Assembly: GCF_000237865.1 (NCBI RefSeq)
Contig: NC_017459.1
Location: 600,001 to 632,000 of the forward strand
Length of the DNA: 32,000 bases
Origin: Haloquadratum walsbyi C23
GTDB lineage: Archaea; Halobacteriota; Halobacteria; Halobacteriales; Haloferacaceae
Direction of reading: 5' to 3'
Of the stretch, positions 1,977-24,439 are shown one piece after another; position 1 is the stretch's first letter, and each line of letters opens with the position of its first letter. The position numbers and the translations under genes are program-made. A model generated the notes under the pieces. That model did not search any database, was not told the origin of the DNA, and was given only the letters and a program-made list of their open reading frames with translations.

Positions 1977-2900
1977 TTATCCAAACTTTCCTGTGATATA
2001 ATCCTCGACTCGTTCGCTCTGTGGGTTTTCGAAGACCTGATCGGTGTCACCGTACTCAACAAGCTCACCGCCGGTCAGAAACACTGCTGTCTGCTCTGAT
2101 ATCCGTGCAGCTTGTTGCATATTATGAGTAACAATAACAACCGTATACTCTTTGCTGAGTTCGGCAATAAGATCCTCAATCTTCGCGGTTGCAATCGGGT
2201 CCAGCGCCGACGCAGGCTCGTCCATCAGGATCACTTCCGGATCGACTGATAAACACCGAGCAATGCAGAGCCGTTGTTGTTGACCGCCCGAAAGGCCGAG
2301 AGCGTTGTCATCAAGACGGTCGTGAACCTCATCCCACAGCGCGGCGTCCCGAAGACACCGCTCAACCAGTTCCTCGCGTTGTTTTTCGTCACTGCGACCG
2401 AGTAACCTCGCGAGTACGCCGGTGTCAATATCGCCGTGTTTCTCCGGACCATATGCAATGTTTTCACGGATAGATTTCGGAAACGGGTTCGGTGACTGAA
2501 ATACCATTCCAACCCGCTTTCGGAGTTCAACGAGGTTCACACCATCTTGATAGATCTCCTGACTATCAAGCGTAACCGACCCATCAATCCGCGCGCTTGA
2601 CACGCGGTCATTCATCCGATTGAGACATCGAAGGAATGTCGATTTTCCACAACCGGAAGGACCAATAAGTGCGGTTACACTCTTTTCAGGAATTTCCATC
2701 GACACGCCTTCTAGCGCTTGGTCATCGCCGTAGTACACATCAAGATCGTCGACCCCAAGCTTTGTCGGGACGTCAAAAGAGTACTCACGCCACTCTTCGC
2801 GGACGTATTCATCGGTTTCGCCGGTCGTCGTTCCGACCATGCTGTCAGTACTATTGGTATCGTCGGTATCCTCGGTCGTAGTGTATGTAGTTTCACTCAT
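1977..2900 (-). CDS. pstB: Phosphate ABC transporter ATP-binding protein PstB
   Basis: Walker [10 protein letters not shown], signature LSGGQQQRL, Walker [13 protein letters not shown]-loop VTHNMQQA, and a PstB-type C-terminus. I trimmed the track ORF (1977-3179) to ATG at 2900. The upstream 93 codons lie inside pstA in another frame. The start overlaps the pstA stop by 8 nt. Confidence 0.95.
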
Positions 2901-4500
2901 GTTGGAGCTTCCTCCGGAAGTAGTATCGCGCTCCGATTCCAACTGCGTAGAACGAAAGCACAATAAAGAGCAGGACGAATGCAGTCGCCCACTGGAACTG
3001 CTCGGGTGAACTGACGGTGTCGCCCAGTCCAACCCCTGCAGTAATAAGCGCATATAATTGGAAAGGCAGAGCGGTTGTTGCCTGAAGCAACTCAGGATTC
3101 GCAACGAATGGTGGCGTTGCGGTGAACTGGAACCCACCGATGACATCAGCTGTCTGACCGCCTGGTACGAATGTCCCACCGGTCATCGTTAATAGAATAG
3201 GCGCAGTCTCACCTGCAATCCGACCCACACCAAGGATGACACCGGTCACGACGCCAGGCAATGCTGCCGGCACAACCACACTCCGAATCGTCTGCCATTT
3301 CGAGACTCCTAGCGCCGCGCTTGCGTCGCGGTACTCGTCAGGGACGGCGAGTATCGCCTCACGACTCGTGATCAGCACGAGCGGTAGTAGCATGAATCCG
3401 AGCGTCAGCATCCCCGAGATCAGCGACTTGTTGCCGCCGAACCGTGGCACTAAGAATGCAAACCCGAAGAGTCCGAAAACAATGCTTGGCGTGCTCCATA
3501 ATCCATTTGTGGCTACCTCAACCACTTGAGTAAACCGACCGCGCTCGGCGTATTCGGTCAGGAAAACCGCTGCTCCAACGCCGAGGGGAACCGCAAACAA
3601 GACCGCGCCAATCACAAGCCAGATTGTCCCGACAATCGCAGGCAGCACGCCCTGGAACTCGTTGAACAGTGACGCACCGTTCATGACGAACGGCAGCGAG
3701 ATTGGAAGTGTCACGCCAAATACTGTTGGACCGACCCCAAGACCAACTGTCGCGCCTGTGAATAAGCCTGGAACTCCCTTCAAAGTGGTAAACGCAATGA
3801 GAATAAACAGCACCCCAACAATGGAAGAGGCATTCAAGTAGATTAACAGATATGCTCCCATCCGCCGACCACGCGCGCCAAAGCCTCCGTATGTTTTCGC
3901 CGCAGCCCACCCAGTGAGAAGCGCACAAAACAGAGTCCCAACTGGGATCACAAACTCCGCGGTCAGCGACGCCTGCTGTTCCCAACTTAGCTCCCAGATC
4001 CATGCAGGACCGATTGTACCGGTGAGATATACAATACCTACAAACATGGTCACCGCGCCCGCTGGGAGCGTCGAGCCGATGTCCTCTCGTAGAACGGCTG
4101 TCACCGCGAATGCTGCCCCCCCAATAATAAGCGCGATAGGCAGCCATGTAATTCCGCCGACCCCGATTACCTGCGCCATGATCCCACCCAGGGCGAACCA
4201 TACGAGCGAGAATGTCGCAGACGCAACGAGACCGGCGCTCGAGCTAGGCTGTGTCTCAACAACGCCTACGTATGACCCGATGCCAAAACCAATCACGACA
4301 CCACCGAGTAGAACCAATATTCCACCTAACAGTGTTACGGTCGAGATCCCAGCGACGGGATCGCTGATTGTGATAATCTCGAACAGTGCAGCTAGCGACA
4401 GTACGAACAATATCGCTGACAGTCCGATAGTGACCGCTGCGATTGCGTCCACCCCTGAGGTGTCGCGACCGATGAGCCGAGTTTCTGTCGCACCCGCCAT
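2893..4500 (-). CDS. pstA: Phosphate ABC transporter permease PstA, long form with extra N-terminal membrane domain
   Basis: The C-terminal half carries the BPD-transporter EAA-type loop ([23 protein letters not shown]) typical of PstA. ATG at 4500-4498 overlaps the pstC stop (TGATG); the track start at 4503 is a TTG. Position is between pstC and pstB. Confidence 0.9.
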
Positions 4501-5624
4501 CAACTCTCACCCCCGAGTTTCCGTTGCATCTGCCACTCGATATACTGCGAGCCAATTGAAATGACGATGACAGTAATGAACAGGATTACGCCTGCTGCGA
4601 ACAGCGCGTCCATCTGGAGTCCGTCAGCCTCGCCATAGTTATTCGCAATCAATGAAGTAAGCGTAGCCTGACCATAAAACGCGTTATATAGTGGTTTCGT
4701 TAACTGCGGGACACCCCGGAGCATAACCGTTGCCGCCATTGTCTCACCGATTGCCCGCCCGACTCCAAGCAAAACTGCCGCCGAAACCCCAGAGAAGGCA
4801 GCAGGCAGCGTAATCGAGGTCATCGTCTGCCAGTCGGTTGTCCCCATTGCCAACGACCCACTCTTCATCGACTCAGGGACACTATTGAGGGCATCCTCGG
4901 CGACCGACACAACCGTCGGCAACGCCATCAACCCAACAACGATTCCAACAAACAAGTACGACCCTTGACCGGTGATCTGAAATTGGTCGGCCGCCCATGG
5001 GCTTAGGATGGTGAACCCGATGAACCCATAAACGATCGAGGGAATGCCGGCGAGGATCTCAACGCCTGGCTTGACGAGTTCACGGACGGTTGTCGGCGCA
5101 ATCTCTGAGAGAAAAAGCGCTGCTGAAACGCCAAGAGGTGCGGCTACCACTGTCGCAATCGTTGTCACCATAACTGTGCCGTGGATCATTGGGACCATTG
5201 AGTATCGAATTGGTGGTGACACCGCATCCCACTGAACCTGTGTGAACATCCGGAGCCCTGGCACACTGACACCGAGAACACTCTGGCTTTCGTATTGAAT
5301 CACGGGAACTGACTTCATGAAAATAAATAGCGTGATCAAAAGCAGGATCAAGATGGTTGAAACCGTCATCGAGAGTGTCAGCATCCGCGCAGTTAGTCCC
5401 TGATAGTTCAGCCACCCATAGCTAGCTGCGATGAGAAATATGCCGAAGGGAATAATGGTAAATGGCGATACAAGTAGGAATCCAACAAGCGCTGACACCA
5501 GCGCGATTGTCATAATACCAACTGTCGCAACAGCTAGCGGCTCCTGATCCCCGACAAAACTGGATAATCGTTGCCACCGATGCGTGAGCGCGTTACGCGC
5601 AGCGACAACTTGTGTTCCTATCAT
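4500..5624 (-). CDS. pstC: Phosphate ABC transporter permease PstC
   Basis: 374-aa polytopic ORF with ATG at 5624. Permease loop ESMKSGSLAMGTTDWQTMTSITLPAA. Gene order is pstS-pstC-pstA-pstB. Confidence 0.9.
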   Translation of the reverse strand: MIGTQVVAARNALTHRWQRLSSFVGDQEPLAVATVGIMTIALVSALVGFLLVSPFTIIPFGIFLIAASYGWLNYQGLTARMLTLSMTVSTILILLLITLFIFMKSVPVIQYESQSVLGVSVPGLRMFTQVQWDAVSPPIRYSMVPMIHGTVMVTTIATVVAAPLGVSAALFLSEIAPTTVRELVKPGVEILAGIPSIVYGFIGFTILSPWAADQFQITGQGSYLFVGIVVGLMALPTVVSVAEDALNSVPESMKSGSLAMGTTDWQTMTSITLPAAFSGVSAAVLLGVGRAIGETMAATVMLRGVPQLTKPLYNAFYGQATLTSLIANNYGEADGLQMDALFAAGVILFITVIVISIGSQYIEWQMQRKLGGES

Positions 5625-5682
5625 AGTATGTTACGTATGGTTATGAACAAAAAACGGACGGAATATTATCGACGGACGGTAC

Positions 5683-6855
5683 CTACACCTGATCTGGTAA
5701 CTTCTCAGCCTCAGCTTGGATATCCTTCGTAGGTAGTGGGATGTAATTATTCTGCTCGACGAATACCTGCTGACCGAATGATGTCAAGAACATGTTGAGG
5801 AATGCACCTTCCTGCATATCGGTCCCACCTGGAGTCTCCTCAGTGATCCGCGTGTACATGTGGAGGTCACGATTAAGCGGGTAGGCGCTGTCGAAGATAG
5901 TGTTCTCAGCGTCCTTATCCGGCTTGTAGACCGTACCGTCAAAATCGATTGCGACTGGTGGGACCTGGTCGCTCGTGAACGCTAGCGCCATATATGCGAT
6001 TGCGCCTTCGTTGTTTGCGACCGCTTCGGCAACCTGCTGATTCTGCCCGAATCGCGAGCTAACGCCTGACATCGATGCGTCAGCGGCGCCCAGCATATTC
6101 AGCCGGAATGAGGTGTCAGTACCGGAGCCTTCAGCACGACCGATAACGAAGATCTCTTGATCTGGACCACCGATCTCCGACCAATTAGTAATCTCACCCT
6201 GGTAGATCCCTCGGACTTGCTCGCCGGTTATCTGGGTCACGCCTGCATCGAAGATTTCCTTGCTCACAACGACTGGCTGACCGTCGCGACCGACAACATG
6301 GTCAACGTATTCCTCTGATGCTTTCTCGTCGCTGATCCCGAGTTCAGCGGTGATTGGACCAGAGGAGTTACCAATGTCAACGAGTCCGTCACGGACTGCT
6401 TTACACCCGGTTCCTGAGTGACTCAAACTCACCGTTGTCGGGTATGGCGGGTCGGAACGCGTTTCGGTTGGGTCAAAGCCATATAAACTCGCGAAGTAAT
6501 CTGCGAGGTTCATATCGGTATTGTCGAACTCGCTCCATCCTGGCACAGTGCTCTCGTCGGTGGAGCCCCAGTATTCGCCGTCACTCGGCGGCGCGTTCGC
6601 ATTCCAGTAGGAACTGCCCTTGTTCGAGATTGGATAGACAGTCGATGACCCCTCTGCGTTGAGGAGGCTGATTTCACTACCACCAGAGCTGTCACTACTG
6701 TCAGAGCTGTCGGAACTATCGCCACCGTCGGATTCCTCACTACTGTTGCCCTCACTTGACGAGCAACCGGCGAGACCGGCTGCGCCGATTGCCCCTGAAG
6801 TAAGGAGGAACTTTCGCCGCGATACTTGTGTGTCGCCCGCGTTGGCTTTTGACAT
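5683..6855 (-). CDS. pstS: Phosphate-binding lipoprotein PstS (Tat signal plus lipobox)
   Basis: Twin-arginine signal SRRKFLLTSGAIGAAGLAGCSS followed by an S/D/E-rich linker. PBP-like body with SHSGTG and GRAEGSGT motifs. The first ATG is at 6855; the track start at 6879 is TTG. Confidence 0.9.
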   Translation of the reverse strand: MSKANAGDTQVSRRKFLLTSGAIGAAGLAGCSSSEGNSSEESDGGDSSDSSDSSDSSGGSEISLLNAEGSSTVYPISNKGSSYWNANAPPSDGEYWGSTDESTVPGWSEFDNTDMNLADYFASLYGFDPTETRSDPPYPTTVSLSHSGTGCKAVRDGLVDIGNSSGPITAELGISDEKASEEYVDHVVGRDGQPVVVSKEIFDAGVTQITGEQVRGIYQGEITNWSEIGGPDQEIFVIGRAEGSGTDTSFRLNMLGAADASMSGVSSRFGQNQQVAEAVANNEGAIAYMALAFTSDQVPPVAIDFDGTVYKPDKDAENTIFDSAYPLNRDLHMYTRITEETPGGTDMQEGAFLNMFLTSFGQQVFVEQNNYIPLPTKDIQAEAEKLPDQV

Positions 6856-6888
6856 CGAATAACTGTCTATCAAGTTCAAGTAAAACGA

Positions 6889-6985: not shown

Positions 6986-7972
6986 ATGAAACTTATCAAG
7001 AGTTACCCATTGGAGACGCAGACTGCAAATATGCACACCGAGAAGTCCAGCAGGGTCACCGTTAGCGACGTGGTGACAGCAGTCGACGATCCCGACGCCG
7101 ACGCCGACACTGTCCGCGACGCGCTCAGACCAGTGACTAATGACGGGATGGTCACCCAGGCGGCGATCGAGACCACTGTGTCCGACGTCTCAAAACTTCT
7201 TGCGACAGCAGAGACCCGAATTGAACTCGCCGGAGATGCTTACGACGATATAGCTAGAGTAGCCGAACCTGTTGAGGATATCCCAACGGTGCGGGCGCGT
7301 CTTAACAGATTCAGTGAGCGGTTATCGGCAATCGAATCGCGGATTCCAGAACTCCGTCCTGGGATATCAATCCCAGAGGACGTCGAAAGCCAGCCCGTCG
7401 AAGTCTACAAGTTCGCGGTCCACATCCGAGAGATTATCGTGATTGCACAGGAGGCGATTGAGGCGGCTGAAGATTTCTCGTTCGATGCTGAGCAGTTCGA
7501 GTCGTGGCTGAATCGCCCGGACCGCCGCTACGACGAGTTCGTCGAGGACTTGGAGGTGGTAGTTGACGCAGCCGATGAACTCGCTACCACAGTTGATGAG
7601 CTGGTGGACGAGTCTATGACCATGACCGTGGATCCGGCGGTCCAGTGGGCGGATGCCACGATGCGGACACAGGTGCTCTTACTTTTACTCACCGACCTCC
7701 ATGCAGAACTTGCTGATCTCCGCAGGCTTGCCGACCGCACAGATGCCTATATCCGAACCGGACTCGCCGATCGAATAAACCGGGCGGAGGAGCAGGTCAC
7801 TGATCTCAACTCAGCGCTCGATACGCACGCCACTCCAGCATGGCGTGACCGGTTCGGGGACGACGTCGAGGCGTTTGATGCGACCCTCAAAGGATTCGAC
7901 CCGCCAGTTGACTGGGGCGCTATTGACCGGGCACTTACGGAACATCAACCGAATTGTCCTGATAAGGAGTAA
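6986..7972 (+). CDS. Conserved haloarchaeal acidic, helix-rich protein of unknown function
   Basis: 328-aa ORF with very acidic composition and long predicted helices. It runs divergent to pstS. An alternative ATG lies at 7031 (MHTEKSS...). I found no catalytic motifs. Confidence 0.7.
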   Translation: MKLIKSYPLETQTANMHTEKSSRVTVSDVVTAVDDPDADADTVRDALRPVTNDGMVTQAAIETTVSDVSKLLATAETRIELAGDAYDDIARVAEPVEDIPTVRARLNRFSERLSAIESRIPELRPGISIPEDVESQPVEVYKFAVHIREIIVIAQEAIEAAEDFSFDAEQFESWLNRPDRRYDEFVEDLEVVVDAADELATTVDELVDESMTMTVDPAVQWADATMRTQVLLLLLTDLHAELADLRRLADRTDAYIRTGLADRINRAEEQVTDLNSALDTHATPAWRDRFGDDVEAFDATLKGFDPPVDWGAIDRALTEHQPNCPDKE

Positions 7973-11932: not shown

Positions 11933-12646
11933 TTATTCTCCAGATAATCCAGCGTTGAGAAATCGCTCAGGATTCGGGAAGAATGTCGTAGCGTCACCAT
12001 GTAAGAGCGTTGCAATATGTGTCCCATCAAGATAGTGAAGATGTGAAATCATTCGATTACAGTTCATTGCAACCCTCACTAATGATGCGGCATGAGTGAT
12101 TGAGTACGCGCCAGCGATAAATAATGACCGTGGTGGTGATACCTCCTCAATGCAGATGCATTCGGTGACGATGAATACTGTTCCCTTGACCACTCGTTGA
12201 TATACGAGCGTTTCATCCACAGTGAACGGCGGATCAATAAATTCAATTGAATCCTCTGCATTGCGGGGGACAACATGTGAGATCCCCCATTTCGGTGTAG
12301 ATGAACACTCGGGGGGAGTCATAATAATCGAGCTGGCGACATTGATATCACCACTCATATTCTCAGTATTTATTTTATGATCATCGTTAGTGGGTCCACG
12401 AGGCATTGTTTCAGCAGCGACCACAAGCGCTGTATGATATCCATCGGCTTCGCGATCATCAACCATTCGATAGGTATCCTCAATTGTTGCTTTCCATCCA
12501 TCGCGAACGGCATCAGCGGCAGCAGCGATATGTGCTGGGCTACCACTCATGTCGTACTCGCGGGATTGCTCACCAGGAATACCAGAATCTGGACCAATCC
12601 GCATTATATCAGTACATGATTGCGCACCTGCCTGAATGTTCCCCAT
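11933..12646 (-). CDS. Conserved hypothetical protein (soluble, acidic)
   Basis: 237-aa ORF with ATG at 12646; alternative ATGs at 12604 and 12550 (MSGSPAHIAAAADAV...). Composition is protein-like. No recognisable motif. Confidence 0.6.
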   Translation of the reverse strand: MGNIQAGAQSCTDIMRIGPDSGIPGEQSREYDMSGSPAHIAAAADAVRDGWKATIEDTYRMVDDREADGYHTALVVAAETMPRGPTNDDHKINTENMSGDINVASSIIMTPPECSSTPKWGISHVVPRNAEDSIEFIDPPFTVDETLVYQRVVKGTVFIVTECICIEEVSPPRSLFIAGAYSITHAASLVRVAMNCNRMISHLHYLDGTHIATLLHGDATTFFPNPERFLNAGLSGE

Positions 12647-12716: not shown

Positions 12717-13178
12717 TCAGATATGAATATCAAGTCCAATCTCAAAATAAAGTGACGTCGCAAGGACAAGGAGACTTGTCGCAAAAAGTTTCCAGTCGCG
12801 ACTTACTCGTTCGTTGATCGAAAGGCGATTATCACGTAATGGTGGGATTGTTTGAATCCGCGTTTCAAACCCATATTCAGTGTTAGTATCAGCCGAAAAT
12901 TGACCAAGCGATATTTGCCGGTGTGTCCTGTCTGATGATCCTTTATGTTCCGAACGAGTGTTCATTGCACGACGACGAACACGCTTCGGTTGAATTCCAA
13001 CACTTCCAATCCCAAAAAGTAGAATCCCAACCAGAAATAAGGCATTTTTTACAGCAACGAGGTTTGTCCAAATGACGAATGCGGTGACACCGCTTAGTAT
13101 GACAGTTACTGTTGATGCAATCAACACCCAAAGCAGAAACTCAGTCAATTGTAATATCAGTTTAGATGTTTGTAGCAT
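12717..13178 (-). CDS. Small membrane protein of unknown function
   Basis: 153-aa ORF with ATG at 13178. Two or three N-terminal TM helices, a basic loop (KRVRRRAMNTRSEHK) and a C-terminal TM helix. It starts 25 nt downstream of the dppF stop on the same strand. Confidence 0.55.
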   Translation of the reverse strand: MLQTSKLILQLTEFLLWVLIASTVTVILSGVTAFVIWTNLVAVKNALFLVGILLFGIGSVGIQPKRVRRRAMNTRSEHKGSSDRTHRQISLGQFSADTNTEYGFETRIQTIPPLRDNRLSINERVSRDWKLFATSLLVLATSLYFEIGLDIHI

Positions 13179-13202: not shown

Positions 13203-14636
13203 CTAATCAACTGACGAATGCGTCCCAGCATCAGGGTCATTGAGACGCCGGTCAAATATCGTCGAGACATCGTCATGTTCAGATTTATGACAGTGACAGT
13301 AGCTTCGTTGTGTCGTCGCTATGGAAGATACTTTGGAGTTCTGAGACGTATCGATATCGCTGACAGCCTGTAATGTCGGTTCCTCGCGATCACAGATGCT
13401 ACCGAATGTGTCCCGAAGTAACTCGCGTGCCTTCTCAGGATATCCTGATTTGATATGCTCGACGGCTGATTCAATTGGGTTGACAACTGCTGGTGGGAAT
13501 TCCTGTAAGTCGCCAAAGAGATCTGTAACAGCTGAATCAATATCATCATGTGCTGAGAATACGCCAAGTTGTCGGGTAATCCGCCCACGAACACCAGGAT
13601 CTACCCGGGAACGCTCACGAACGACTTCCCGAAAGCGCTCAATACGTTCCCACGTTGTTGCATCGAGATGATCAAGTTCGCTTGGGCGGAGTTTCGCTGG
13701 GCATCGTGTCGCGAACTGACATCCTGTCGGGGGATCACGAGGACTTGGTGGTGTCCCTGGAAGTGTGATACGTGTTGTCTCATCCTGTGGGTCTGGATTC
13801 GGAATTGCTGAAAGCAGTGCTCGCGTGTATGGATTCTGTGGATTTTGATACAATTGCTCTGTTTCACCAATCTCCATTATTTTTCCAAGATATAATACTG
13901 CGACTCGATCACATATATGTCTAACTACTGAAAGGTCATGGGCAATAAACAGATATGTCAATCCAAACTTTGCCTGCAGGTCATCAAGCAGTGAGATAAT
14001 TTTCGCTTGAACACTCACATCAAGCGCACTCACCGGTTCATCAAGTACAAGAAACTCCGGTTCAAGCGCAAGTGCACGTGCGATACCGACGCGTTGGCGT
14101 TGACCACCAGAGAACTGGTGCGGGTACCGGACATAATGTTCGGGTTGAAGCCCAACATCAGCAAGTAGTGTTTGAACCCGGTTACGACGTTCACTTTTTG
14201 TCCCCCATTCATGCGCATCAAGTGGCTCACGGATGATCTCACCAACCGTCATGCGATCATTAAGACTCGACTCCGGATCCTGAAATACAATTTGTGCACG
14301 TTGACGCCACTCAGTCAGTGAATCGCCATGTAATGTCGTGACGTCAGTCCCATCAAAGGTAATATCTCCTGCTGTTGCTGTCTCTAATTGGACAAGTGTG
14401 CGCCCTAACGTGGTCTTTCCAGAGCCAGACTCGCCAACAAGTCCAAGCGTCTCACCACGCTCAATTTGAAAGCTGACCCCATCGACTGCTTTTACTGGTG
14501 GATCCGCAAATGCACCATCGCCACCATAGTATGTTTTCAAATCTTTAACAGTCACAAGCGGGTCTGTGGTTACATCGGATTCCAACTGCGAGGACCGTGC
14601 TGACTCGTCAGGACGAGAATCAACTGTTTTACTCAT
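13203..14636 (-). CDS. dppF: Peptide (Dpp/Opp-type) ABC transporter ATP-binding protein with a ~100-aa C-terminal insertion
   Basis: Walker [10 protein letters not shown], signature [12 protein letters not shown], Walker [13 protein letters not shown]-loop IAHDL, and the oligopeptide C-terminal motif NPYTRALL. The start is uncertain: ATG at 14636 is 2 nt past the dppD stop, and alternatives are ATG 14657 and GTG 14681. Confidence 0.9.
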
Positions 14637-15774
14637 GATATTCACCGGTATTAGCATCTGCTTCTGTCTCTGTCTCTGCACGACGACGATGTTTCGCTAC
14701 GCGCGGTGATTCTTCCATCTCCGCTGGATAAAGAAGACAGGCCGTTGTATGGGTTGAATTATCATCAACACTGACATGTTGTGGCGGCACGGCCTCACAC
14801 TCATCGAAGGCTTTTGGACACCGCGGCGCAAATCGACAGTTACTTGCGGGTGCATTGGGCGTTGGGACATCACCCTCAATCGTCCGTAATCCATCATCAC
14901 CAGACCGCCGTCCGGGGATAGCATCTAGCAGCCCGCGTGTATATGGATGTTGTGGGGATTGAAATAGCCGTTCGACAGGAGCTTGTTCAACAATCTCACC
15001 CGCATATACAACGTTTACACGATCTGCAATTTGGGCAATAACACCCATATCATGTGTAATGAATAGGATTGAAAGATCACGCTTCTGTTGTATCTCAGAG
15101 AGAAGATCAAGGATTTGTGCTTGAATAGTTACATCAAGTGCGGTTGTTGGTTCATCACAGATAAGAAATTCCGGATCACAGGCTAGCATCATCGCAATGA
15201 CCGCTCGTTGTCGCATTCCGCCAGAGAACTCATGTGGGTACTCCGAAAGTCGACGGGCGGGGTCTGGAATTGCAACGGCTTCAAGTAACTCAATCGCTTG
15301 GCGACGTGCCTCCTCACCACGGATATTCTGATTAACAGCAAGTGCTTCACGGATTTGATTGCCGATTGTATACACTGGATTGAGTGATTGTTGAGGATCC
15401 TGAAACACCATTCCAATACCATCACCACGGATTGCACGATATTCATCATCGCTGTAGTCGGTGAGTTCGTCATTGTTGAATCTAATCGAAGACGCTGGGA
15501 GTATCTCACCCGGTGCATCGATCAGACCCATAATTGAGCGGGCAGTCACACTTTTACCCGAGCCAGACTCACCGACAATACCGACTGTTTCGCCACGACG
15601 GACATCAAAATCAATCCCATCAACGGCATAGATTGTTTCACGATCAGTGCGAAAAACCGTCGTGAGATTGTGAACAGAAAGAACGACATCATCATCAGGT
15701 TGAGCTGATGTCGACGTTTTTCGGTCGACATCCGGTATCATTGAATCTGAGTTGGATCCTGCTGACGATTCCAT
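14629..15774 (-). CDS. dppD: Peptide (Dpp/Opp-type) ABC transporter ATP-binding protein
   Basis: Walker A GESGSGKSV, signature FSGGMRQR, Walker B LICDEPTTALD, H-loop ITHDMG, HPYTRGLL, and a canonical Cys-rich tail CRFAPRCP..C..AC. ATG at 15774 overlaps the dppC stop (TGATG). Confidence 0.92.
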   Translation of the reverse strand: MESSAGSNSDSMIPDVDRKTSTSAQPDDDVVLSVHNLTTVFRTDRETIYAVDGIDFDVRRGETVGIVGESGSGKSVTARSIMGLIDAPGEILPASSIRFNNDELTDYSDDEYRAIRGDGIGMVFQDPQQSLNPVYTIGNQIREALAVNQNIRGEEARRQAIELLEAVAIPDPARRLSEYPHEFSGGMRQRAVIAMMLACDPEFLICDEPTTALDVTIQAQILDLLSEIQQKRDLSILFITHDMGVIAQIADRVNVVYAGEIVEQAPVERLFQSPQHPYTRGLLDAIPGRRSGDDGLRTIEGDVPTPNAPASNCRFAPRCPKAFDECEAVPPQHVSVDDNSTHTTACLLYPAEMEESPRVAKHRRRAETETEADANTGEYHE

Positions 15775-17336
15775 CAGGCACCACCCCCAGTCACTCCTTC
15801 AGTCTGATCACTGCCATTGCTTTCTGGATCAATTGCATCTCGCAGTCCATCACCGAATGCGTTCAATCCAGTCACAAGAAGGACAATCATCAGTCCTGGG
15901 AGTAATGAAATGTGCCAAGATGAACTGGAAACATAACTCTGTCCAAGCGAAACCGCCCGCCCCCATGCTGGTGTTGGTGGCGTAATTCCAAGACCATTGC
16001 CAAGGAACGACAAGGCGGCAAGTCCAATAATAATGCCCCCAGTTGAGAGAGAAGCATACACCAACAGATACCCAGTTACATATGGAAGCATATGCTTTCG
16101 CATAATCGTCCGTGGGGTCTGTCCAAAGCTGCGAGCAGCATCAACCCATGACTCGCGGGCGACCTGTAATGCCGGTCCACGAACAGCTCGCCAAAGAAAT
16201 GGCCATCCAGTGAATGCAAATATCAACGCAAGAAGGAACCCACCATCTAACACCGTTGCAAGCCAATGATCAGCAAAGACGGCGCTAATCATAATTAATA
16301 ATAATAACTGTGGGACAGAAACAACACCATCGGCTGTCGTGAGGATGCCAAGATCAATTCGACCCCCATAGAATGCAGACATCATCGCAAGTGTGGCAGC
16401 AATAAGACTACTCAATCCAATTGCAAGACCAGCAACGATAAGCGTAATCCGTGCGCCACCCATCATAAATGTGAATAAATCCCGACCGTTCGGGAGTGTT
16501 CCAAACGGATGGAATCGATTGAATTCATCATAACTCATTGGACCAACATTCTGTTCACTCGAACCCTTTGACTTCGAGTCAAAATTGGCATCGCCAGCAG
16601 TAATTGTTTCAACAGTTTGAGTATCTGTGTTGAGATATGTAATCTCATGACTATATGGCGAAATAATATTTTGCTCGACAGTGGTTGGTCCAAGTGCGGG
16701 TCCAAACAGTGCCATCGTAAGGAATAGTGCGATAATAATAATACCAAACTGTCCCCAGCGGTGCTCAGAGAGCCGATCAACGATATCATCAGTCGGGGTC
16801 CATTCAGCATGTCGGTAGTGATCACGAAAGATTGTCCATCCTCGGAAGATCCAGTAGAAGACAAATAATGAGTATCCAATAATCAATAATGCACGGAGCG
16901 CCCATGCGAGACCTGGTTCAACACCAAATATTGGACCAGCCCACGGGCCATCGGGGCTCATAAGATGACCCTGGTTCGGAACTGTCTCTCGACTTAAGAG
17001 CGTTGGAATCCCCTCAGCGGCATCGCGAGCAGTCGTAATTGCATTTGAAGCCGTTGTCTGTATATCAACAACGGTGGCTGCGAGTTGTGGATTAATCACG
17101 CCAACAGCAATATCAATAAACGCGGTCAGACCAATGACAACACCGTCAAGAATTGTCAATAACCCACCAAGAAAGGCGCCAAGCTCAACTGCAAGCAATC
17201 CAGCGGCAACAACCGCCCATCTGATTGCTGGCGTTGGTTCGGCAGTAATACGAGCGCGAACTGATTGGCCATCGCGCTGAAACGGGTCATCAGCGGTCGT
17301 CTCAACGGTCGAGGTTGTGTGAGAGCGTGCGCACAT
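15774..17336 (-). CDS. dppC: Peptide ABC transporter permease (DppC/OppC type) with a ~180-aa N-terminal membrane extension
   Basis: The C-terminal ~330 aa align by eye to DppC-type permeases (GTLPNGRDLFTFMMGGARITL..., EAA-like loop ESWVDAARSFGQTPRTIMRKHMLP). ATG at 17336. Confidence 0.9.
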   Translation of the reverse strand: MCARSHTTSTVETTADDPFQRDGQSVRARITAEPTPAIRWAVVAAGLLAVELGAFLGGLLTILDGVVIGLTAFIDIAVGVINPQLAATVVDIQTTASNAITTARDAAEGIPTLLSRETVPNQGHLMSPDGPWAGPIFGVEPGLAWALRALLIIGYSLFVFYWIFRGWTIFRDHYRHAEWTPTDDIVDRLSEHRWGQFGIIIIALFLTMALFGPALGPTTVEQNIISPYSHEITYLNTDTQTVETITAGDANFDSKSKGSSEQNVGPMSYDEFNRFHPFGTLPNGRDLFTFMMGGARITLIVAGLAIGLSSLIAATLAMMSAFYGGRIDLGILTTADGVVSVPQLLLLIMISAVFADHWLATVLDGGFLLALIFAFTGWPFLWRAVRGPALQVARESWVDAARSFGQTPRTIMRKHMLPYVTGYLLVYASLSTGGIIIGLAALSFLGNGLGITPPTPAWGRAVSLGQSYVSSSSWHISLLPGLMIVLLVTGLNAFGDGLRDAIDPESNGSDQTEGVTGGGA

Positions 17337-17478: not shown

Positions 17479-18570
17479 TCATTGTTCGGTATCTTCGAGT
17501 GTGATCCTTGGGTCAACAACTGTGTAGAGAAGGTCTTGTGTGATATTGAATAATACTTGGATGATAATAAAGACAAAGACGAGTGTCATCACAACTGGAA
17601 TATCCGGACCAAGAACAGCCCGGAAGAATAGATTACCAAGTCCATTAATACTGAATACTTGCTCAACCAGTACCGACCCGCCGATGAGCAAATAAAACTC
17701 ACCCATGATCACTGGTAGTAGTGGCACAATTGCATTGCGACCAACATGTTTGATAATTATTCGTCGTGCTGAGAGTCCCTTTGCTTTTGCCGTTTCAATA
17801 TACTTTGAGTTCAGACTCTCGAGAACTGCTGTCCGACCAATCCGGATCTCGTTTCCCATCGACGCGGATCCCAGCACAAGTGCTGCAGGGAGGATCCATT
17901 TGAACGCGATAATGAAATTCTCAACATTTGGAATGGGAATAATCACTAACCCAATGATTGGTGCTGCTCCAAAGGGGTCAATAACGGTAAAGAGCTGCCG
18001 CACTGCAGCGGGTGTTCCAATAACATCGGTATTCACACCAAATGCCCGATACCATGAAAGAACACCACCGGCCGAAAGACTCCCAGCAATCATCACTGCA
18101 AGCCAAAAGTTAGGCATTGCTCGCCAGATAATACCGCCACCAGAGGCAACGTAATCTCCCCATGTATTCGCTTTGAGTCCAGCGTACAGCCCAACCGGAA
18201 TACCAATTAATAATGCAATGACAACCGACCACCACCCAAGCCATAGCGTGGGCGCCATTCGTCCAAGAATAACGCTTTGCACGGATGCTCCGCGCTGAAT
18301 AATCCAGGATTGACCAAACTGAAAGGTGACAAGATCTCGTAATACCATCCCATATTGTTCCCATAATGGAATCGGTGTTCCATTCGGGCGAATAATCCCG
18401 AGCGAAATTCGAAGCTGACGGGCAGCCTCAGGATTTGCATCTCGACCAAGGATAGACAATACCGGGTCGATAGGACCCTTATACATGATTAAAAACGACA
18501 TCGTCAACCCAAACAGAAGGACTGGAATGGCTAACGCAAATCGTTTCAATATATATATAAATCGGTTCAT
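17479..18570 (-). CDS. dppB: Peptide ABC transporter permease (DppB/OppB type)
   Basis: 363-aa polytopic ORF. N-terminus MNRFIYILKRFALAIPVL is typical of DppB. EAA loop YIETAKAKGLSARRIIIKHVGRNA. C-terminus DLLYTVVDPRI. Confidence 0.92.
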   Translation of the reverse strand: MNRFIYILKRFALAIPVLLFGLTMSFLIMYKGPIDPVLSILGRDANPEAARQLRISLGIIRPNGTPIPLWEQYGMVLRDLVTFQFGQSWIIQRGASVQSVILGRMAPTLWLGWWSVVIALLIGIPVGLYAGLKANTWGDYVASGGGIIWRAMPNFWLAVMIAGSLSAGGVLSWYRAFGVNTDVIGTPAAVRQLFTVIDPFGAAPIIGLVIIPIPNVENFIIAFKWILPAALVLGSASMGNEIRIGRTAVLESLNSKYIETAKAKGLSARRIIIKHVGRNAIVPLLPVIMGEFYLLIGGSVLVEQVFSINGLGNLFFRAVLGPDIPVVMTLVFVFIIIQVLFNITQDLLYTVVDPRITLEDTEQ

Positions 18571-18696
18571 TTGAATGGTCGATGTAATATTGATAGACTT
18601 GGTTTCATCTGTGGGATGCTAGAAGTCTCATATTTTTACTGAGAGTCAGACTGTATTGTAATACGTACTGTTTAAACGAATATCCTACCCTACTTA

Positions 18697-20553
18697 TTAT
18701 CCCTGCCAATGTGAATTATACGCCGAGGTCCCACCAGGGTACACTTGTGGTGGCGTGAGGTGATATGCAGGGACACCCCGACCTTTGAATACATCATCGA
18801 CAAATTGCTCACGATTAGTCACGTATGCCATTGCCTGTCGAACTGCTTTTGGAACTTTCTCCATATGGAATCCGACATAAAAGGTATTAATTGTCGGAGT
18901 GCGAGCCATGTTAACCGTCTTATCATTCTCAAGTGGACCGTACGTTCCAAATTCCTGTGACCCATCTGTTGATTCGATTGAGACTTTCTCAGGGTCGTAC
19001 TTTGCTGTTGGAATCCCTGCAACATCGGCATTTTCGTTTAGGAAGTAATTGTACGATGCAGTTGTATCAGTGATAATTGCGCTATCGATACCCTCAATTG
19101 CTGCTTGTTGTCCATGATACTCATCAAACCGATCGACGGTAAATGAGCCACCATTACCAGAGTTCCACTCAACAAAGGTGAATGGACCAGTCCCGATTGG
19201 GTTTGTGGTGGAGAATTCTGTCTGTGACATCTCACCATCATACCCCTCAATATCACCAATAATCCCTTCAGGAATGACAGAGAACGCTGAATATGCAAGA
19301 ACCTCAAGTGTGTAACTGAATGGTTGTTGAAGTGTGATTCGGAAGGAGTACTCACCAGTTGCCTCAACCCCTGTCGAATCGGGAATAACATTCCCATCTG
19401 CGTCAGTCTCACGCTCAATGTTTAAGACGCTATTTGGAAAGTACGTGTTCGTCGAGTTGTTTGACTCGACAAGTCGTCGAATCGAGTACACCACATCATC
19501 AGCGGTGACCTCCCCATAGTCGCCATGAAATTGAATTCCCTCCTTTAGCGTGAATTCATACTCTGTGAGATCATCGCTTACCTCATAATCACTGATGAGG
19601 AGTGGTTCAACCTCAGTATCCCCATTCGGATAGTTCATTGGCGCATCGAACATGTTCATGATTTTTCCTCCAGAGGCAGTATTTCCTGATGCAATTGGGT
19701 CAAGTGCACTGAATGTCGCTGAGGTCCCACTTAGTCTGTCTTTGCTCATAATTCCATCAACCGATACATTCTCTTTTGATCGTGAACCGCCCATGCCGCT
19801 AGGCGGATTATATGAGACACGATCATACCAAAACTGCTCAGAAACGCTATGATAGATTGGAAGTAATGCTGCAGACTCCCATAATCCGGCTTCTATATTC
19901 CCAACAGCATCGTTTCGGGTCTGAACAGCACTCTCATTTAACCCAGGGTTATCTTGAATTCGATTAAACTGCGAAGCAATGTATTCTCTGATAGGAGTAT
20001 CGGTATTCGCGTCTTCTGACCAGAATAACCGCGCACCATTTGGGGTATATCCATCCGCATCATAAACCGTATTCTCAGGGTCGACAAGTTGAAGGAAATT
20101 CTGTGGAGCAGGATAATCAGCAATCCAACCAAGTGTGAACGCTTCATGACTTCCCTTTTCAGTCGTTTCAAGAAGGGCACCGAAGTCTGCCTCACTGATG
20201 CTCATATCGATATATGCAGACTCAAGCCGAGCACGAACCGTATTCGCAATTTCCTTCCATGTTGGACTCGTATATTGAGTCCAGCTGAGTTCATATCGGT
20301 TATCCGGACCAAACCCAGCTTCTTCCATGACAGATCGTGCGCTTTGAACATCTGTCTCACCGGGTGAATATGGGTATGATGACGGTCGAGAGAATTCCGT
20401 TGAACTTGGACCTCCACTATCATCGGGTGTCTGTGTCTCAGTTTCAGTCTCCCCGTCACTCCCCTGTGAACATCCAGCGACGCCAACCGTTGCCGCAACA
20501 GCACCAGTCGCACGCAAGAACCGACGTCGATTCACCTCAGAGTCATCAACCAT
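18697..20553 (-). CDS. dppA: Family-5 (DppA/OppA-type) substrate-binding lipoprotein, circularly permuted domain order
   Basis: Tat signal RRRFLRATGAVAATVGVAGCS plus lipobox and an acidic linker. Family-5 SBP motifs are all present but out of order. The canonical C-terminal part (YPYSPGE..EEAGF, LGWIADYPAPQNFL, LPIYH) comes first. The canonical N-terminal part (ALDP, YEFTLKEGIQFHGDYGEVTADDVVYS, NPIGTGPFTFVEW, VRQAMAYVTNRE) comes last. Confidence 0.9.
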   Translation of the reverse strand: MVDDSEVNRRRFLRATGAVAATVGVAGCSQGSDGETETETQTPDDSGGPSSTEFSRPSSYPYSPGETDVQSARSVMEEAGFGPDNRYELSWTQYTSPTWKEIANTVRARLESAYIDMSISEADFGALLETTEKGSHEAFTLGWIADYPAPQNFLQLVDPENTVYDADGYTPNGARLFWSEDANTDTPIREYIASQFNRIQDNPGLNESAVQTRNDAVGNIEAGLWESAALLPIYHSVSEQFWYDRVSYNPPSGMGGSRSKENVSVDGIMSKDRLSGTSATFSALDPIASGNTASGGKIMNMFDAPMNYPNGDTEVEPLLISDYEVSDDLTEYEFTLKEGIQFHGDYGEVTADDVVYSIRRLVESNNSTNTYFPNSVLNIERETDADGNVIPDSTGVEATGEYSFRITLQQPFSYTLEVLAYSAFSVIPEGIIGDIEGYDGEMSQTEFSTTNPIGTGPFTFVEWNSGNGGSFTVDRFDEYHGQQAAIEGIDSAIITDTTASYNYFLNENADVAGIPTAKYDPEKVSIESTDGSQEFGTYGPLENDKTVNMARTPTINTFYVGFHMEKVPKAVRQAMAYVTNREQFVDDVFKGRGVPAYHLTPPQVYPGGTSAYNSHWQG

Positions 20554-20644
20554 TTGCTATAGAATAACATATTAATTGGCTTAAGCGTACTGACCGGATA
20601 CGTGGATGAGTATCTGAGGGTTGATAATTATGGATTAATAATGA

Positions 20645-20676
20645 TTAGACCATTAGATCATTAGATCATAAGATCA
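20645..20676. repeat. Four tandem octamers ttagacca|ttagatca|ttagatca|taagatca in the dppA / MFS divergent intergenic region
   Basis: Read directly from the sequence, and followed by a gatc-rich tagcggatcgatca. It lies about 92-123 nt upstream of the dppA ATG. Confidence 0.6.
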
Positions 20677-21053
20677 TAGCGGATCGATCAATGCACCGAG
20701 AATAATCATAAATATAATCTTCAGTATTTGCTTCTTTTTACTCATCAAAATAAGTATTGTGAGTGAGACAGGTCATTAAATATGTTTGAAGAGCAATAAG
20801 ATCAGCCTACTAAGCCGGCTTCCAAAATCACGCATGGCTTTGAGAGTTAACTAGAGGTATCAAACTATCATACCACACTGATATCAATATAGTATCGTTG
20901 CACTATTGATGATTCTATCAGAACAAAGATTAATTACAAGCGTCTAAGTTATGATTGAACAATCGTTATTTCAGGATATTATTATCGATCGGAATACCCG
21001 ATATCATGCGACTGTGAGACATTTATCTCTTAATTATTATCAACATTCACCTG

Positions 21054-22379
21054 ATGAAAAATAATACTATGCAGATTGACTATGCATCGCGTGCTCGCGA
21101 CCAACTTGGCTTTTCGCGATGGTGGTTGCTTCTTGGCGCTGCTGTGAGCATGGCGCTTGTCAGTCCATATCAGTATGTGTGGTCATCAATTGAAGGACCA
21201 CTGGCTACTCAATTTGGCGCTCAACCGCCAGCTCTTGGTGCTGTGTTTACCTTGTTTGTGATCTTCCAAGCAGGATCGCAATTTCCCATTGGGTGGTGGC
21301 GAGATAAACGCGGACCAAGAGCCATTTCATTCATCGCAGCGGTATTAGCCGGGGGTGGATATATTGGGCTTGCATACGCAACAGCAATCTGGCAGATATA
21401 TATTCTCTATTCACTTGGTGCAATTGGAGTTGGCGTTGTATACACAGTTTCGGTTAATACGGCTTTGAAATGGTTCCCAGATCGACCAGGATTGACTACC
21501 GGTGTTGGAACTATGGCATTTGCGGCTGGAAGTGCGCTCGTAGTTCCATTTGTCCGAGCGAATGCAACAGCAACATCATATCCATTTGTTCTTCGGACGC
21601 TCGGTGTCATTATCGGTCTCGGTATCTTTCTTGGAGCGCTCATTCTCCGTGATCCTCCAGACGGATGGACGGACAGCCGGACAACCACTACTGAGGAAAA
21701 TCAATCTGATAAAACTGACACTGAGATAACGAATGATACTGGCACAAATGAGACACAATATAGATGGCATGACGTGCTTCGAACATGGCAGTTTTGGGTG
21801 ATGTACGGTATGTTCATTGCCGTCAGCGGAGCAGGGTTGATGCTTACCGCAAAGGTCGTCTCATTCGCAGATGCGCTTGGATTGACAGCGGTGACAGCAA
21901 CTGCTTCTGCGACGCTATTACCTGTTGCTGGAGGCGCAGGACGTCTCATCCTTGGTGATCTCTCCGATCGGGTTCCCCGAGAGCATGCAATGGCGGTATC
22001 ATTCACATTGTGTGGGATTGGTCTTGCCGCAGTCGTCTATTTCGCTCAAAACGGGTCGACACTCGGATTCCTAGCAGCGGTTGTCATGACAACATTCTTT
22101 TGGAGCCCACAGTACACACTCTTCCCTAGCGTTATCGGGACGTATTATGGAAGTGCCAATTCATCAGCCAACTATGCATTACTGTACTCAGGAAAGATGT
22201 GGGGCGGTGTCTTTGGAGGAGCTGCTGCTGGGTGGCTTATCAATCAGGTCGGGTGGTCAATTGCTTTTCTGGTAGGATCGGGATTGGCTGTTATCGCCGG
22301 TATCGCAGCACTTGCCCTTCGACCACCAGAAACACCCGCAACAGAACATATTGACGCTGATGTTGATACCGGCGACTAA
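21054..22379 (+). CDS. MFS transporter, oxalate/formate antiporter (OFA)-like
   Basis: 441-aa ORF with 12 predicted TM helices. The N-terminal region WLLLGAAVSMALVSPYQYVWSSI and the loop GWWRDKRGPR are typical of the OFA subfamily. T/E/D-rich central loop. Alternative ATG at 21069. Confidence 0.85.
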   Translation: MKNNTMQIDYASRARDQLGFSRWWLLLGAAVSMALVSPYQYVWSSIEGPLATQFGAQPPALGAVFTLFVIFQAGSQFPIGWWRDKRGPRAISFIAAVLAGGGYIGLAYATAIWQIYILYSLGAIGVGVVYTVSVNTALKWFPDRPGLTTGVGTMAFAAGSALVVPFVRANATATSYPFVLRTLGVIIGLGIFLGALILRDPPDGWTDSRTTTTEENQSDKTDTEITNDTGTNETQYRWHDVLRTWQFWVMYGMFIAVSGAGLMLTAKVVSFADALGLTAVTATASATLLPVAGGAGRLILGDLSDRVPREHAMAVSFTLCGIGLAAVVYFAQNGSTLGFLAAVVMTTFFWSPQYTLFPSVIGTYYGSANSSANYALLYSGKMWGGVFGGAAAGWLINQVGWSIAFLVGSGLAVIAGIAALALRPPETPATEHIDADVDTGD

Positions 22380-22583: not shown

Positions 22584-24182
22584 TCAGAATCCGATTGCTG
22601 TCCCGTCTTTTCTGGGGTCTGTCGCACCGGAGAGGACATCGCCACGACGGCGAGCGAACTGAGCACCACCAAATGCACTCGGTGGACGGACAGTTAGCTC
22701 ATGACCGCGACGAGCAAGCTTTCCAAGAACCCCGTCAGCAAATCGTTCTTCAACAGCGAGAGAGCCATCATCACAGTAGCGCCACCGTGGTGCGTTGAGC
22801 GCAGCCTGTGAATCAAATCCGTAATCAAGTAAATTCGCAAGAACCTGCAGATGTCCTTGTGGTTGCATATATCCACCCATCACACCAAATGCAGCCCAAT
22901 CATCTGAATCAAATTGGATCAATCCGGGAATGAGTGTATGAAACGGTCGCTTTTTCGGCTCAAGTGTGTTTGGATGCGATGGGTCAAGTGTGAAGGACGC
23001 ACCACGGTTCTGAAGCACGATTCCCGTGTCAGGTACAACAACACCGCTGCCGAATGGCTCAAAGATTGAATTAATTAATGAAACAACATTACCTGCCCTA
23101 TCAGCGACCGTTAGCAACACTGTGTCACTATCTTCTGGAGGCATCCCTGGTCCGCCGACGCTAACATCACTCGCATATGGACCAATACTTTCTGCTCGAT
23201 TCGCTGCGTATGATGATGAAGCGAGATCAGGAATTGACTCAAATTCCGGATCAGTAATGTAGTGATGTCCATCGTGGAATGCTCGTTTCAACGATTCTGC
23301 ATAGTAATGAATTCGATCCGCAGAATCATATGCGTATGACCCAGCATCAACTTTAGACGCGATATTAAGCGCTTCAAGTGCAATCAATCCTTGATTATTC
23401 GGGGGGAGCTCATACACTGTTGCTCCGCGATATGTCGTTGAAACCGGGTCAACATACTCAGCCTCAAACTCTGCAAGATCAGACGACTCAAGTAAGCCAC
23501 CACGGTCACGGACGGCACTTGCAATCTGTGTTGCGAGTGAGTCTTCATAAAAGGCGTCAGCACCGCCCTGAGCAATCGACTTGAATGTTTCAGCAAGATG
23601 TGGGAGTCGAATAACGTCACCAACAGATGGAGTGCCATCTGATACACTGAAAGCTTCCTTACCGATAGCATCAATAAACGTATCAGCATTACGCGTCCAC
23701 GCATCGGCAATAATCTCTGAGACAGGATATCCCTCACTTGCATGCGTAATCGCTGGTTCAAGTGCTGTTTCAAACCCATACTGACCATAATCCGTGAGAA
23801 GCCGTTCCCATCCACGGACAGTTCCAGGGACAGTAACAGCAAGCGGACCGGAACTAGGCATTGTTGGGGACTCGGTGTTGAGACGATCACGAATAGTCTC
23901 ACGAGTCGCAGCTGCAGGAGCACCACCACAACTTCGCATTGCACCAACATCACCATCTGCAGTTCGATACATCGCAAAGACGTCACCGCCAATCCCCGTG
24001 CTCATCGGCTCAACAACATTCAACGTTGCAGCGGTCGCAACAGCAGCGTCAAAAGCGTTGCCGCCACTCTGAAGTGATTGAATCCCAGCTTGTGCTGCTA
24101 ATGGCTGACTTGTCGCAACAACACCAGTACGTGCGTATACCGTTGAACGACGGGAGTCAAAGGCATCTAAATCGGGACTCAT
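22584..24182 (-). CDS. ggt: Gamma-glutamyltransferase (Ntn-hydrolase family)
   Basis: N-terminal GVVATSQPLAAQAGIQSLQSGGNAFDAAVATAATLNVVEPMSTGIGGD. Putative autoprocessing and nucleophile site KKRPFHTLIPG. C-terminal GGAQ...SGATDPRKDG. ATG at 24182; the track start at 24254 is TTG. Confidence 0.9.
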   Translation of the reverse strand: MSPDLDAFDSRRSTVYARTGVVATSQPLAAQAGIQSLQSGGNAFDAAVATAATLNVVEPMSTGIGGDVFAMYRTADGDVGAMRSCGGAPAAATRETIRDRLNTESPTMPSSGPLAVTVPGTVRGWERLLTDYGQYGFETALEPAITHASEGYPVSEIIADAWTRNADTFIDAIGKEAFSVSDGTPSVGDVIRLPHLAETFKSIAQGGADAFYEDSLATQIASAVRDRGGLLESSDLAEFEAEYVDPVSTTYRGATVYELPPNNQGLIALEALNIASKVDAGSYAYDSADRIHYYAESLKRAFHDGHHYITDPEFESIPDLASSSYAANRAESIGPYASDVSVGGPGMPPEDSDTVLLTVADRAGNVVSLINSIFEPFGSGVVVPDTGIVLQNRGASFTLDPSHPNTLEPKKRPFHTLIPGLIQFDSDDWAAFGVMGGYMQPQGHLQVLANLLDYGFDSQAALNAPRWRYCDDGSLAVEERFADGVLGKLARRGHELTVRPPSAFGGAQFARRRGDVLSGATDPRKDGTAIGF

Positions 24183-24439
24183 CGACAATTCACCTGCTGA
24201 AAATCCATCTTTACATCGATGGGTTGAACCATATGCAAACGATTTACCCCCCAATATAAAATTATATGTGCATACCTATTTCGGCAAACCTGTGCAAACC
24301 CTAATATCTCTACCTTAGGATTCCTCTGTCTTCAGACGAAAAATATCAATGATATGATCGCCAGTGACGAGGATATGGTGAGAAATAAAGCGAATGTGCC
24401 CGCGACTGTATTCACACTGTGATCCTCCACCGGTCGACT

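Follow-up and report, generated by a model that had tools for sequence, protein, structure and literature searches.

The family-5 substrate-binding proteins (SBPs; DppA, OppA, NikA and relatives) rank with the best-studied receptors of ATP-binding cassette (ABC) transporters and serve widely as scaffolds; to our knowledge, the topology of their chain has been treated as fixed, and both classification schemes and profile hidden Markov models (HMMs) assume as much. In the searchable literature, we found a single natural case of a circularly permuted ABC binding protein, Tp0684 (MglB-2) of Treponema pallidum, a glucose-binding lipoprotein of ‘Type Ic / Cluster Bc’ that retains ligand binding and gains a fourth crossing of the hinge; the permuted part shares ~13% identity with its canonical counterpart, and the authors, who leave the origin undecided, speculate that the topology represents an adaptation to membrane tethering (PMC4990184). 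Here, we analyse a window of 32,000 nucleotides from the genome of Haloquadratum walsbyi C23 (NC_017459.1, positions 600,001 to 632,000; coordinates below are those of the window), in which a gene on the reverse strand (18697..20553 (-)) encodes a family-5 substrate-binding lipoprotein, and confirm that in this protein the family-5 binding-protein fold is truly circularly permuted and that the permutation is conserved. Our literature search, with subscription-only papers outside its scope, turned up engineered sensors, the Treponema cluster B case and generic mentions, and no description of a natural permuted family-5 / cluster C SBP; such a protein is apparently previously undescribed.

The gene consists of one unbroken reading frame of 618 codons plus stop, and its product—hereafter the query—is identical in sequence to H. 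walsbyi C23 CCC39526.1 / WP_014555368.1, from a complete genome. Following the chain from its N-terminus, we see a twin-arginine translocation (Tat) signal peptide and lipobox at aa 1–28 (20470..20553 (-); NRRRFL...VAGC, NRRRFLRATGAVAATVGVAGC), matched by TIGR01409 at 17.2 bits (cut-off 16.7) and by Pfam TAT_signal at 21.1, slightly below its cut-off of 22.7; residues R9, R10, G27 and C28 of the Tat motif and lipobox are invariant across 72 homologs. An acidic, disordered tether linker follows (aa 29–57; 20383..20469 (-)), with predicted local distance difference test (pLDDT) values <50 through aa 52. The mature protein then opens with what is the C-terminal third of a canonical family-5 SBP (block C, aa 58–262; 19768..20382 (-)), passes through a junction leading from the old C-terminus to the old N-terminus (aa 263–269; 19747..19767 (-)), and only then enters the start of the canonical mature protein (block N1, aa 270–383; 19405..19746 (-)). 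A surface loop (aa 384–388; 19390..19404 (-)), situated within ETDADGNVIPDS and unbroken here, is the cut site of relatives with the order N2-C-N1 (see below); beyond it lies the middle of the canonical protein (block N2, aa 389–618; 18700..19389 (-)), delimited by profile and block HMMs and running to the new C-terminus ‘...HWQG’, the point directly preceding the canonical YPYG.

The swapped order is seen most directly with a profile of 612 positions built from 19 canonical-order haloarchaeal relatives. Positions 1–48 of this profile fall on aa 1–48 of the query, the signal region remaining collinear with that of the canonical relatives; after this, positions 407–605 (aa 58–262) precede positions 62–405 (N1 and N2; aa 270–616), with E-values of 1e-69 and 1e-138 for the two blocks that exclude chance as the source of the alignment. 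Two canonical controls give one collinear match apiece. The breakpoints abut on the profile (405|407), with nothing missing and nothing duplicated: swapped, abutting segments, each present once, whose old termini are joined by a 7-residue junction, constitute a circular permutation in the strict sense. A phmmer comparison with PDB sequences gives the same picture, query 258–613 matching residues ~16–325 of DppA/HbpA-type chains and query 59–189 matching residues ~326/347–470 of those same chains. Pfam SBP_bac_5 (PF00496) scores 204.3 bits (cut-off 32.4, E=4e-60) in two stretches, the best of which places aa 314–613 on HMM positions 1–259 of 368; the query is not collinear with this cluster C profile, in which the N-terminal block comes first. 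At the cut point itself, canonical relatives read unbroken through ‘...PGGKSAYDQHAQEN|YPYGYNE...’, whereas the query ends in ‘...PGGTSAYNSHWQG*’ and opens its mature part with ‘...SRPSS|YPYSPGE...’; the new termini are, as a sequence-only reading of this DNA had proposed, residues that adjoin in a canonical protein. That reading had placed the two blocks at 19759–20382 and 18700–19746, which correspond to aa 58–265 and aa 270–618, and the motif strings it quoted all occur at the residues given; its prediction that late profile positions would come first, with no single collinear HMM alignment, is borne out by both the PDB and the canonical-order profile comparisons.

An AlphaFold2 model of the query, computed from a 72-sequence alignment, confidently predicts a single folded unit (mean pLDDT 87.1; predicted template modelling (pTM) score 0.84), disordered solely in the signal and linker (aa 1–52); the junction between the old termini appears as a high-confidence turn between two strands (E265–268 and E273–278). 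All 50 of the top Foldseek matches to this model in the PDB are cluster C SBPs, at a probability of 1.00, and include DppA, OppA, DppE, MppA, NikZ and AccA; the alignments extend over only 246–298 columns, however, with target-normalised TM-scores of 0.33–0.44, since the aligner is sequential and covers one half of the chain per match. The model of a canonical control (P0099) aligns to the same PDB entries over 556–604 columns, with TM-scores of 0.59–0.77 and far lower E-values, whilst the order of secondary-structure elements inside each block is identical in the two models. Such a contrast would be expected from the same fold carried on a rotated chain and, together with the prediction itself, is consistent with the permuted copy of that fold envisaged by the sequence-only reading. 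Among PDB entries, Foldseek found no solved structure with the connectivity of the query, no entry being aligned full-length.

The chain thus begins at canonical residue ~326, placed within the second lobe, continues to the old C-terminus, then passes via the junction into the old N-terminus and ends at canonical residue ~325. On the predicted structure, the overall fold, the ligand cleft and both crossings of the hinge would be kept; the position of the chain ends changes, and hence the lobe that would bear the lipid tether. If the domain boundaries of DppA are as we take them to be, the cut site lies inside domain III, with the termini in the second lobe where those of a canonical protein are in domain I; the chain would therefore still cross the hinge twice, with both termini and the lipid tether on the second lobe. 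The shifted tether may carry a functional consequence.

The permuted order marks a large haloarchaeal clade and is no singleton. HMMs for block C (aa 59–262), N1 (270–383) and N2 (389–618), run on the 120 best database homologs, assign the query order to 90, the canonical order to 19 and the order N2-C-N1 to 11; one is a fragment without N2, and in the 119 matches with all three blocks each is found exactly once, with near end-to-end coverage in intact proteins. The query order and length are kept at 39 species-representative haloarchaeal genome loci, from many independent assemblies and several complete genomes, in Haloquadratum, Halolamina, Halorubrum, Halonotius, Haloferax, Halorhabdus, Halapricum, Halodesulfurarchaeum, Halosegnis, Halosimplex and Halobacterium (including H. 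salinarum DSM 3754). In addition, the 90%-identity cluster of the query contains a protein from strain HBSQ001, one derived from a fosmid, and members found on >100 contigs from metagenomes. Compared with two other H. walsbyi lineages, the gene has a ratio of nonsynonymous to synonymous substitution rates (dN/dS) of 0.027–0.050 and is under strong purifying selection.

The SBP gene stands first in a five-gene operon. It is followed on the same strand by a DppB/OppB-like permease with a BPD_transp_1 domain (17479..18570 (-)), a DppC/OppC-like permease with OppC_N plus BPD_transp_1 and an N-terminal extension of ~180 aa (15774..17336 (-)), and two ABC ATPases, each with an oligo_HPY C-terminal domain (14629..15774 (-) and 13203..14681 (-)); assigned by Pfam and locus comparison, the five together make up a complete Dpp/Opp-type importer. 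The order SBP-permease-permease-ATPase-ATPase, complete with OppC_N and oligo_HPY, is kept at nearly all query-order loci, the flanks of which are without another SBP gene. Recurrence, conserved operon and low dN/dS together exclude misassembly, a hidden frameshift and pseudogenisation.

The query type is one of at least four non-canonical rotations among archaeal relatives. Full-length sequences were rotated to a common frame (163 sequences, 548 columns) and placed on a neighbour-joining tree with 100 bootstraps. Three Haloglomus proteins of the order N2-C-N1 branch from within the query clade, the nodes that enclose them having bootstrap 100, and belong to the orthologous operon; their N2-C junction, ‘...EHWQG-YDGSDTGGSDFDGLS-GYPYSPNE...’, consists of a query-type C-terminus, an acidic linker and a query-type mature N-terminus, and both of their new termini carry an ‘ERET’ remnant of the loop that is unbroken in the query. 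From this nesting, and from the query-type termini fused by a linker, it follows that these proteins have been permuted twice. The order N2-C-N1 is also found, with a native N2-C junction, in a Halanaeroarchaeum/Halodesulfurarchaeum group (the P0104 group) that is sister to canonical P0112 (bootstrap 84) and 65–67% identical to it in swapped order; cutting the unusual loop of P0112, ‘HETETVTQDGEEQEVYRPGS’, yields both termini of the group (‘...HETETVTVEQ*’ and ‘...TVEQEVYKPGS’), including their overlap. Sisterhood and loop together mark this event as independent of the query type.

A further order, C2-N1-N2-C1, cut in a flexible loop of block C, is represented by P0167, P0162 (from the complete genome of Halapricum salinum), P0198 and P0184, of which the last is sister to canonical P0181 (bootstrap 100), being 52% identical to it in swapped order and 33% identical to P0167. 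P0147 (canonical), P0166 (N2-C-N1) and P0167 (C2-N1-N2-C1) share 52–55% mutual identity. Outside the haloarchaea, the cut in P0226 of Candidatus Methanofastidiosia (five cluster members, one in an NCBI metagenome-assembled genome (MAG)) falls close to the boundary between domains I and III. This protein and its canonical relatives are 88–91% identical and have the lipoprotein signal and the C-terminal membrane anchor in common; its junction peptides still recognisably derive from the old N-linker and C-tail. Comparison of its locus (L084; MGD2250031.1) with that of P0300 (L086) reveals two adjacent DNA segments, 134–820 and 842–1686 (about 687 and 845 bp), swapped between collinear flanks; this permutation is very young. 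Two rearranged proteins carry additional sequence. The query-type protein P0014 (Halomarina salina, 644 aa) has a Ser/Gly/Asn-rich tail of ~25 residues beyond the usual ‘...HWQG’, resembling the linker after HWQG in the twice-permuted Haloglomus proteins, and P0162 (965 aa; QCC51974.1 / WP_079979476.1) has its SBP unit at aa ~423–960, preceded by an N-terminal region of ~330 aa with the UniRef name protein kinase domain and then by a hydrophobic segment; P0162 may act as a membrane-bound kinase whose sensor is an extracellular binding protein.

We consider it rather probable that archaeal family-5 SBPs are a hot spot of recurrent, serial circular permutation, with at least five orders (canonical, C-N1-N2, N2-C-N1, C2-N1-N2-C1 and the Methanofastidiosia order cut near the domain I/III hinge) spread over ~6–8 separate lineages, the export signal being kept every time and every cut falling in surface loops. 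For the query order itself, the most likely route would be one of duplication and deletion: the mature coding region would first have been duplicated or fused in tandem, in frame and behind one signal peptide (sig-N-C~N-C); the first N part would then have been deleted internally and the last C part truncated, with the signal peptide kept. The sequence-only reading had spoken of duplication followed by double truncation; the duplication is supported, whereas a literal truncation on the N side is ruled out by the retained signal, for with signal, lipobox and linker still N-terminal the loss there has to be an internal in-frame deletion. The event is old, the order being common to genera of both the Haloferacales and the Halobacteriales.

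That the gene is an assembly chimera, or two genes joined through a missed stop or frameshift, had been raised by the sequence-only reading as a default caveat and has found no support since; the frame is single and open, with neither stop nor frameshift between the halves, the identical protein comes from the complete C23 genome, and cluster members on >100 contigs, the same order and length at the 39 species loci and a dN/dS of 0.03–0.05 leave the idea with a negligible probability. A domain-shuffled chimera, to which two different SBP paralogs would have contributed the C-terminal and the N-terminal part respectively, is conceivable in that haloarchaeal genomes hold several family-5 paralogs each, and one MAG contains a query-type plus an N2-C-N1 gene. 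The similarities of the N part and of the C part to 59 canonical sequences are congruent, however (Spearman 0.80, p=4e-14), and both blocks are nearest to haloarchaeal canonical sequences of the same group (P0093–P0118), which argues for one source gene and against a chimera; with the blocks abutting on the canonical profile without loss or overlap, and with each younger analogous case matching one canonical relative at 65–91% identity in both of its halves, we regard shuffling as very improbable. We hold it to be quite improbable that the permuted protein has left transporter service to act as a receptor or sensor, or persists in its operon as a decaying relic: SBP-like domains are reused as sensors, rearranged P0162 is fused to a protein that its source names as a kinase-domain protein, and the permuted MglB-2 of Treponema has been discussed as a chemoreceptor (PMC4990184), but the gene heads the conserved importer operon in essentially every locus, with no other SBP gene in the flanks, is under strong purifying selection, and keeps its signal, its lipobox and a predicted ligand-binding Asp invariant.

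The several rotations could also descend from one long-lived double-length fusion ancestor, differently resolved in each lineage, rather than from repeated independent duplications. All of the rearranged orders have the old C-terminus fused to the old N-terminus through linkers of similar length, with 22–26 residues from the SRxK-type motif (HHxK/SHxR in some lineages) to the DP motif; P0091, an N2-C-N1 protein with an N2-C junction of native length, groups with the basal query-type proteins P0089/P0090; and DUF7529 is found downstream of query-type and P0104-type operons alike. We nevertheless think a shared ancestor of this kind unlikely, given that the P0104 group pairs with canonical P0112 in the tree and has the lineage-specific loop of that protein, that P0184 pairs with canonical P0181 whereas its identity to the other C2-N1-N2-C1 proteins is just 33%, that the Haloglomus junction is explicable solely by a second round starting from the query type, and that the Methanofastidiosia case is unrelated and young.

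Taking these lines together, we put at roughly 85% the probability that the query is a functional, lipid-anchored SBP of the Dpp/Opp type, in which the family-5 (cluster C) fold has been cleanly permuted, most likely by duplication and deletion. A number of observations weigh against this reading or against parts of it. The structural argument rests on a prediction and on a contrast in aligned length, and the control model of P0099 is of low confidence (pLDDT 63.6) because its alignment held only 19 sequences; we used it solely to compare aligned length and the order of secondary structure. Scanned with the canonical-order profile, the window flanks (18401–21100) yield no trace of a second copy, which fits a permutation older than the split between several haloarchaeal families. 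Among the ~400 sequences inspected (120 + 150 + 120), in which the long proteins are fusions with unrelated domains, none is a double-length tandem-fusion intermediate—a result that counts against a double-length ancestor as well as against our own scheme. Deep nodes of the neighbour-joining tree have bootstrap values <30, leaving uncertain both the number of events and whether a fusion was shared with some N2-C-N1 lineages, and these nodes lend the shared ancestor some room; we therefore put the chain orders at five or more and the independent events at several, and give no exact count. With respect to function, DppA Arg355, presumably a carboxylate-binding ligand contact (literature on 1DPP), aligns to Gln93 of the query and is not conserved, and the query scores 89.2 bits on the DppA equivalog NF043070 (NCBIfam) as against a cut-off of 1005. 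By contrast, invariant D146 of block C (GWIAD) aligns with Asp408 of Escherichia coli DppA (GWTGD), which we take from the same literature to be the residue that binds the α-amino group of the peptide; we would infer from these residues that the ligand is peptide-like or amine-bearing.

The genes around the SBP gene provide some observations of their own. The DppC/OppC-like permease (15774–17336 (-)) is 520 aa long, with OppC_N starting at residue 180 and the preceding ~180 residues free of any Pfam match; its counterpart in the Haloglomus operon is of matching length (517 aa). The two ATPase open reading frames (ORFs; 13203–14681 and 14629–15774 (-)) share 53 nt in their listed extents; the downstream one starts with GTG, and the second ATPase probably begins further inside the listed ORF 13203–14681. 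Directly downstream of the ATPases lie genes for DUF7529 (11933–12646 (-)) and DUF7555 (12717–13178 (-)). A DUF7529 homolog, 69–77% identical inside H. walsbyi and 25–37% outside it, comes after the operon in most query-type loci and in both kinds of N2-C-N1 locus, almost always on the same strand, and is not present at the three canonical loci examined; DUF7529 may be an operon-associated gene. On the other side, we considered GGT (22584–24254) and MFS (21054–22379) genes as clues to the substrate and dropped them on comparing loci: the GGT gene is missing from all other loci examined, and the MFS gene recurs solely in another H. walsbyi assembly.

Two further family-5 relatives have unusual architectures. 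P0158 (866 aa) is a canonical-order SBP with a Gly-rich linker, two repeats bearing ‘YHCxPHExxG’ motifs and a C-terminal hydrophobic tail; the repeats look like copper domains of the cupredoxin/halocyanin type. For P0335 (847 aa), a precomputed Pfam list adds PF00959, PF23457 and PF01476 to the SBP; with PF00959 and PF01476 presumably phage lysozyme and LysM, P0335 would combine, unusually, a binding protein with modules for lysis or for binding to the cell wall. Elsewhere in the window, a phosphate-type ABC transporter cluster (1977–6879 (-)) comprises a PBP_like_2 binding protein (5683–6879 (-)), two permeases (4500–5624 and 2893–4503 (-)) and an ATPase (1977–3179 (-)), in a stretch with a G+C content of 0.51–0.56 as against 0.43–0.49 in the remaining window; its listed permease and ATPase ORFs overlap by ~290 nt, so that one start is probably mis-set. 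Next to it, a 328-aa ORF (6986–7972 (+)) is without a Pfam match at E<=0.001.

A rotated chain in a large, conserved haloarchaeal clade accounts for the split, two-piece domain matches seen in annotation, and the natural cut sites, validated by evolution, are available for engineering circularly permuted sensors on the family-5 fold. The family also supplies unusually explicit sequence-level evidence for the route from duplication to deletion to circular permutation, and a comparative system in which to ask whether shifting termini and lipid tether between lobes alters ligand capture or docking, a question already raised for MglB-2. Were the hot-spot interpretation to hold, the archaeal proteins would form a natural series linking chain connectivity and tether position to folding, hinge dynamics and docking to the ABC translocator, and selection on the attachment site of the lipid tether would be possible.

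Set beside the canonical family-5 / cluster C SBPs (E. coli DppA (1DPP), OppA, MppA and NikA; Bacillus subtilis DppE/OppA/AppA), the query shares the SBP_bac_5 match, the best structural matches, the operon partners and the Asp equivalent to D408, and, like the Gram-positive and archaeal members, it is exported and lipid-anchored, as predicted from signal and lipobox; unlike them, it runs through residues ~326 to the end first and ~1–325 second. By sequence, fold and operon it is a member of SBP_bac_5 / cluster C, yet it departs from the collinearity that membership implies, and it is no DppA equivalog. The canonical haloarchaeal paralogs (P0099, which is Haloferax WP_151111344.1; P0112; P0118) are closer still, with 45–51% identity over both blocks and the same Tat signal, lipobox, acidic linker and type of operon; these proteins are collinear, reading unbroken through ‘...HAQEN-YPYG...’ where the query is cut, and with free termini where the query has its junction.

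Permutation by duplication is an established model in other families, among them the DNA methyltransferases and saposin/swaposin. The archaeal proteins resemble that model in that each segment is present once and a short linker joins the old termini, that overlap remnants persist at the new termini of the younger relatives, and that the product of a second round keeps the termini of the first round internally; they differ from it in that the signal peptide stays fixed—as does the C-terminal membrane anchor in the Methanofastidiosia case—and internal segments are exchanged between fixed ends. With MglB-2, the query has in common that it is a naturally permuted, lipid-tethered binding protein of the ABC type with a bilobed fold (in the query, a predicted one). 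MglB-2 belongs to the type I / cluster B sugar-binding class, however, and with no cluster B protein among either the PDB phmmer or the Foldseek matches of the query, the two are alike in phenomenon only. Unlike that of MglB-2, the query's permutation is clean, with clear homology to canonical relatives in both halves and several rotations side by side in the one family; by analogy, the idea of an adaptation to membrane tethering would be equally applicable here, all members of the query family being lipoproteins.

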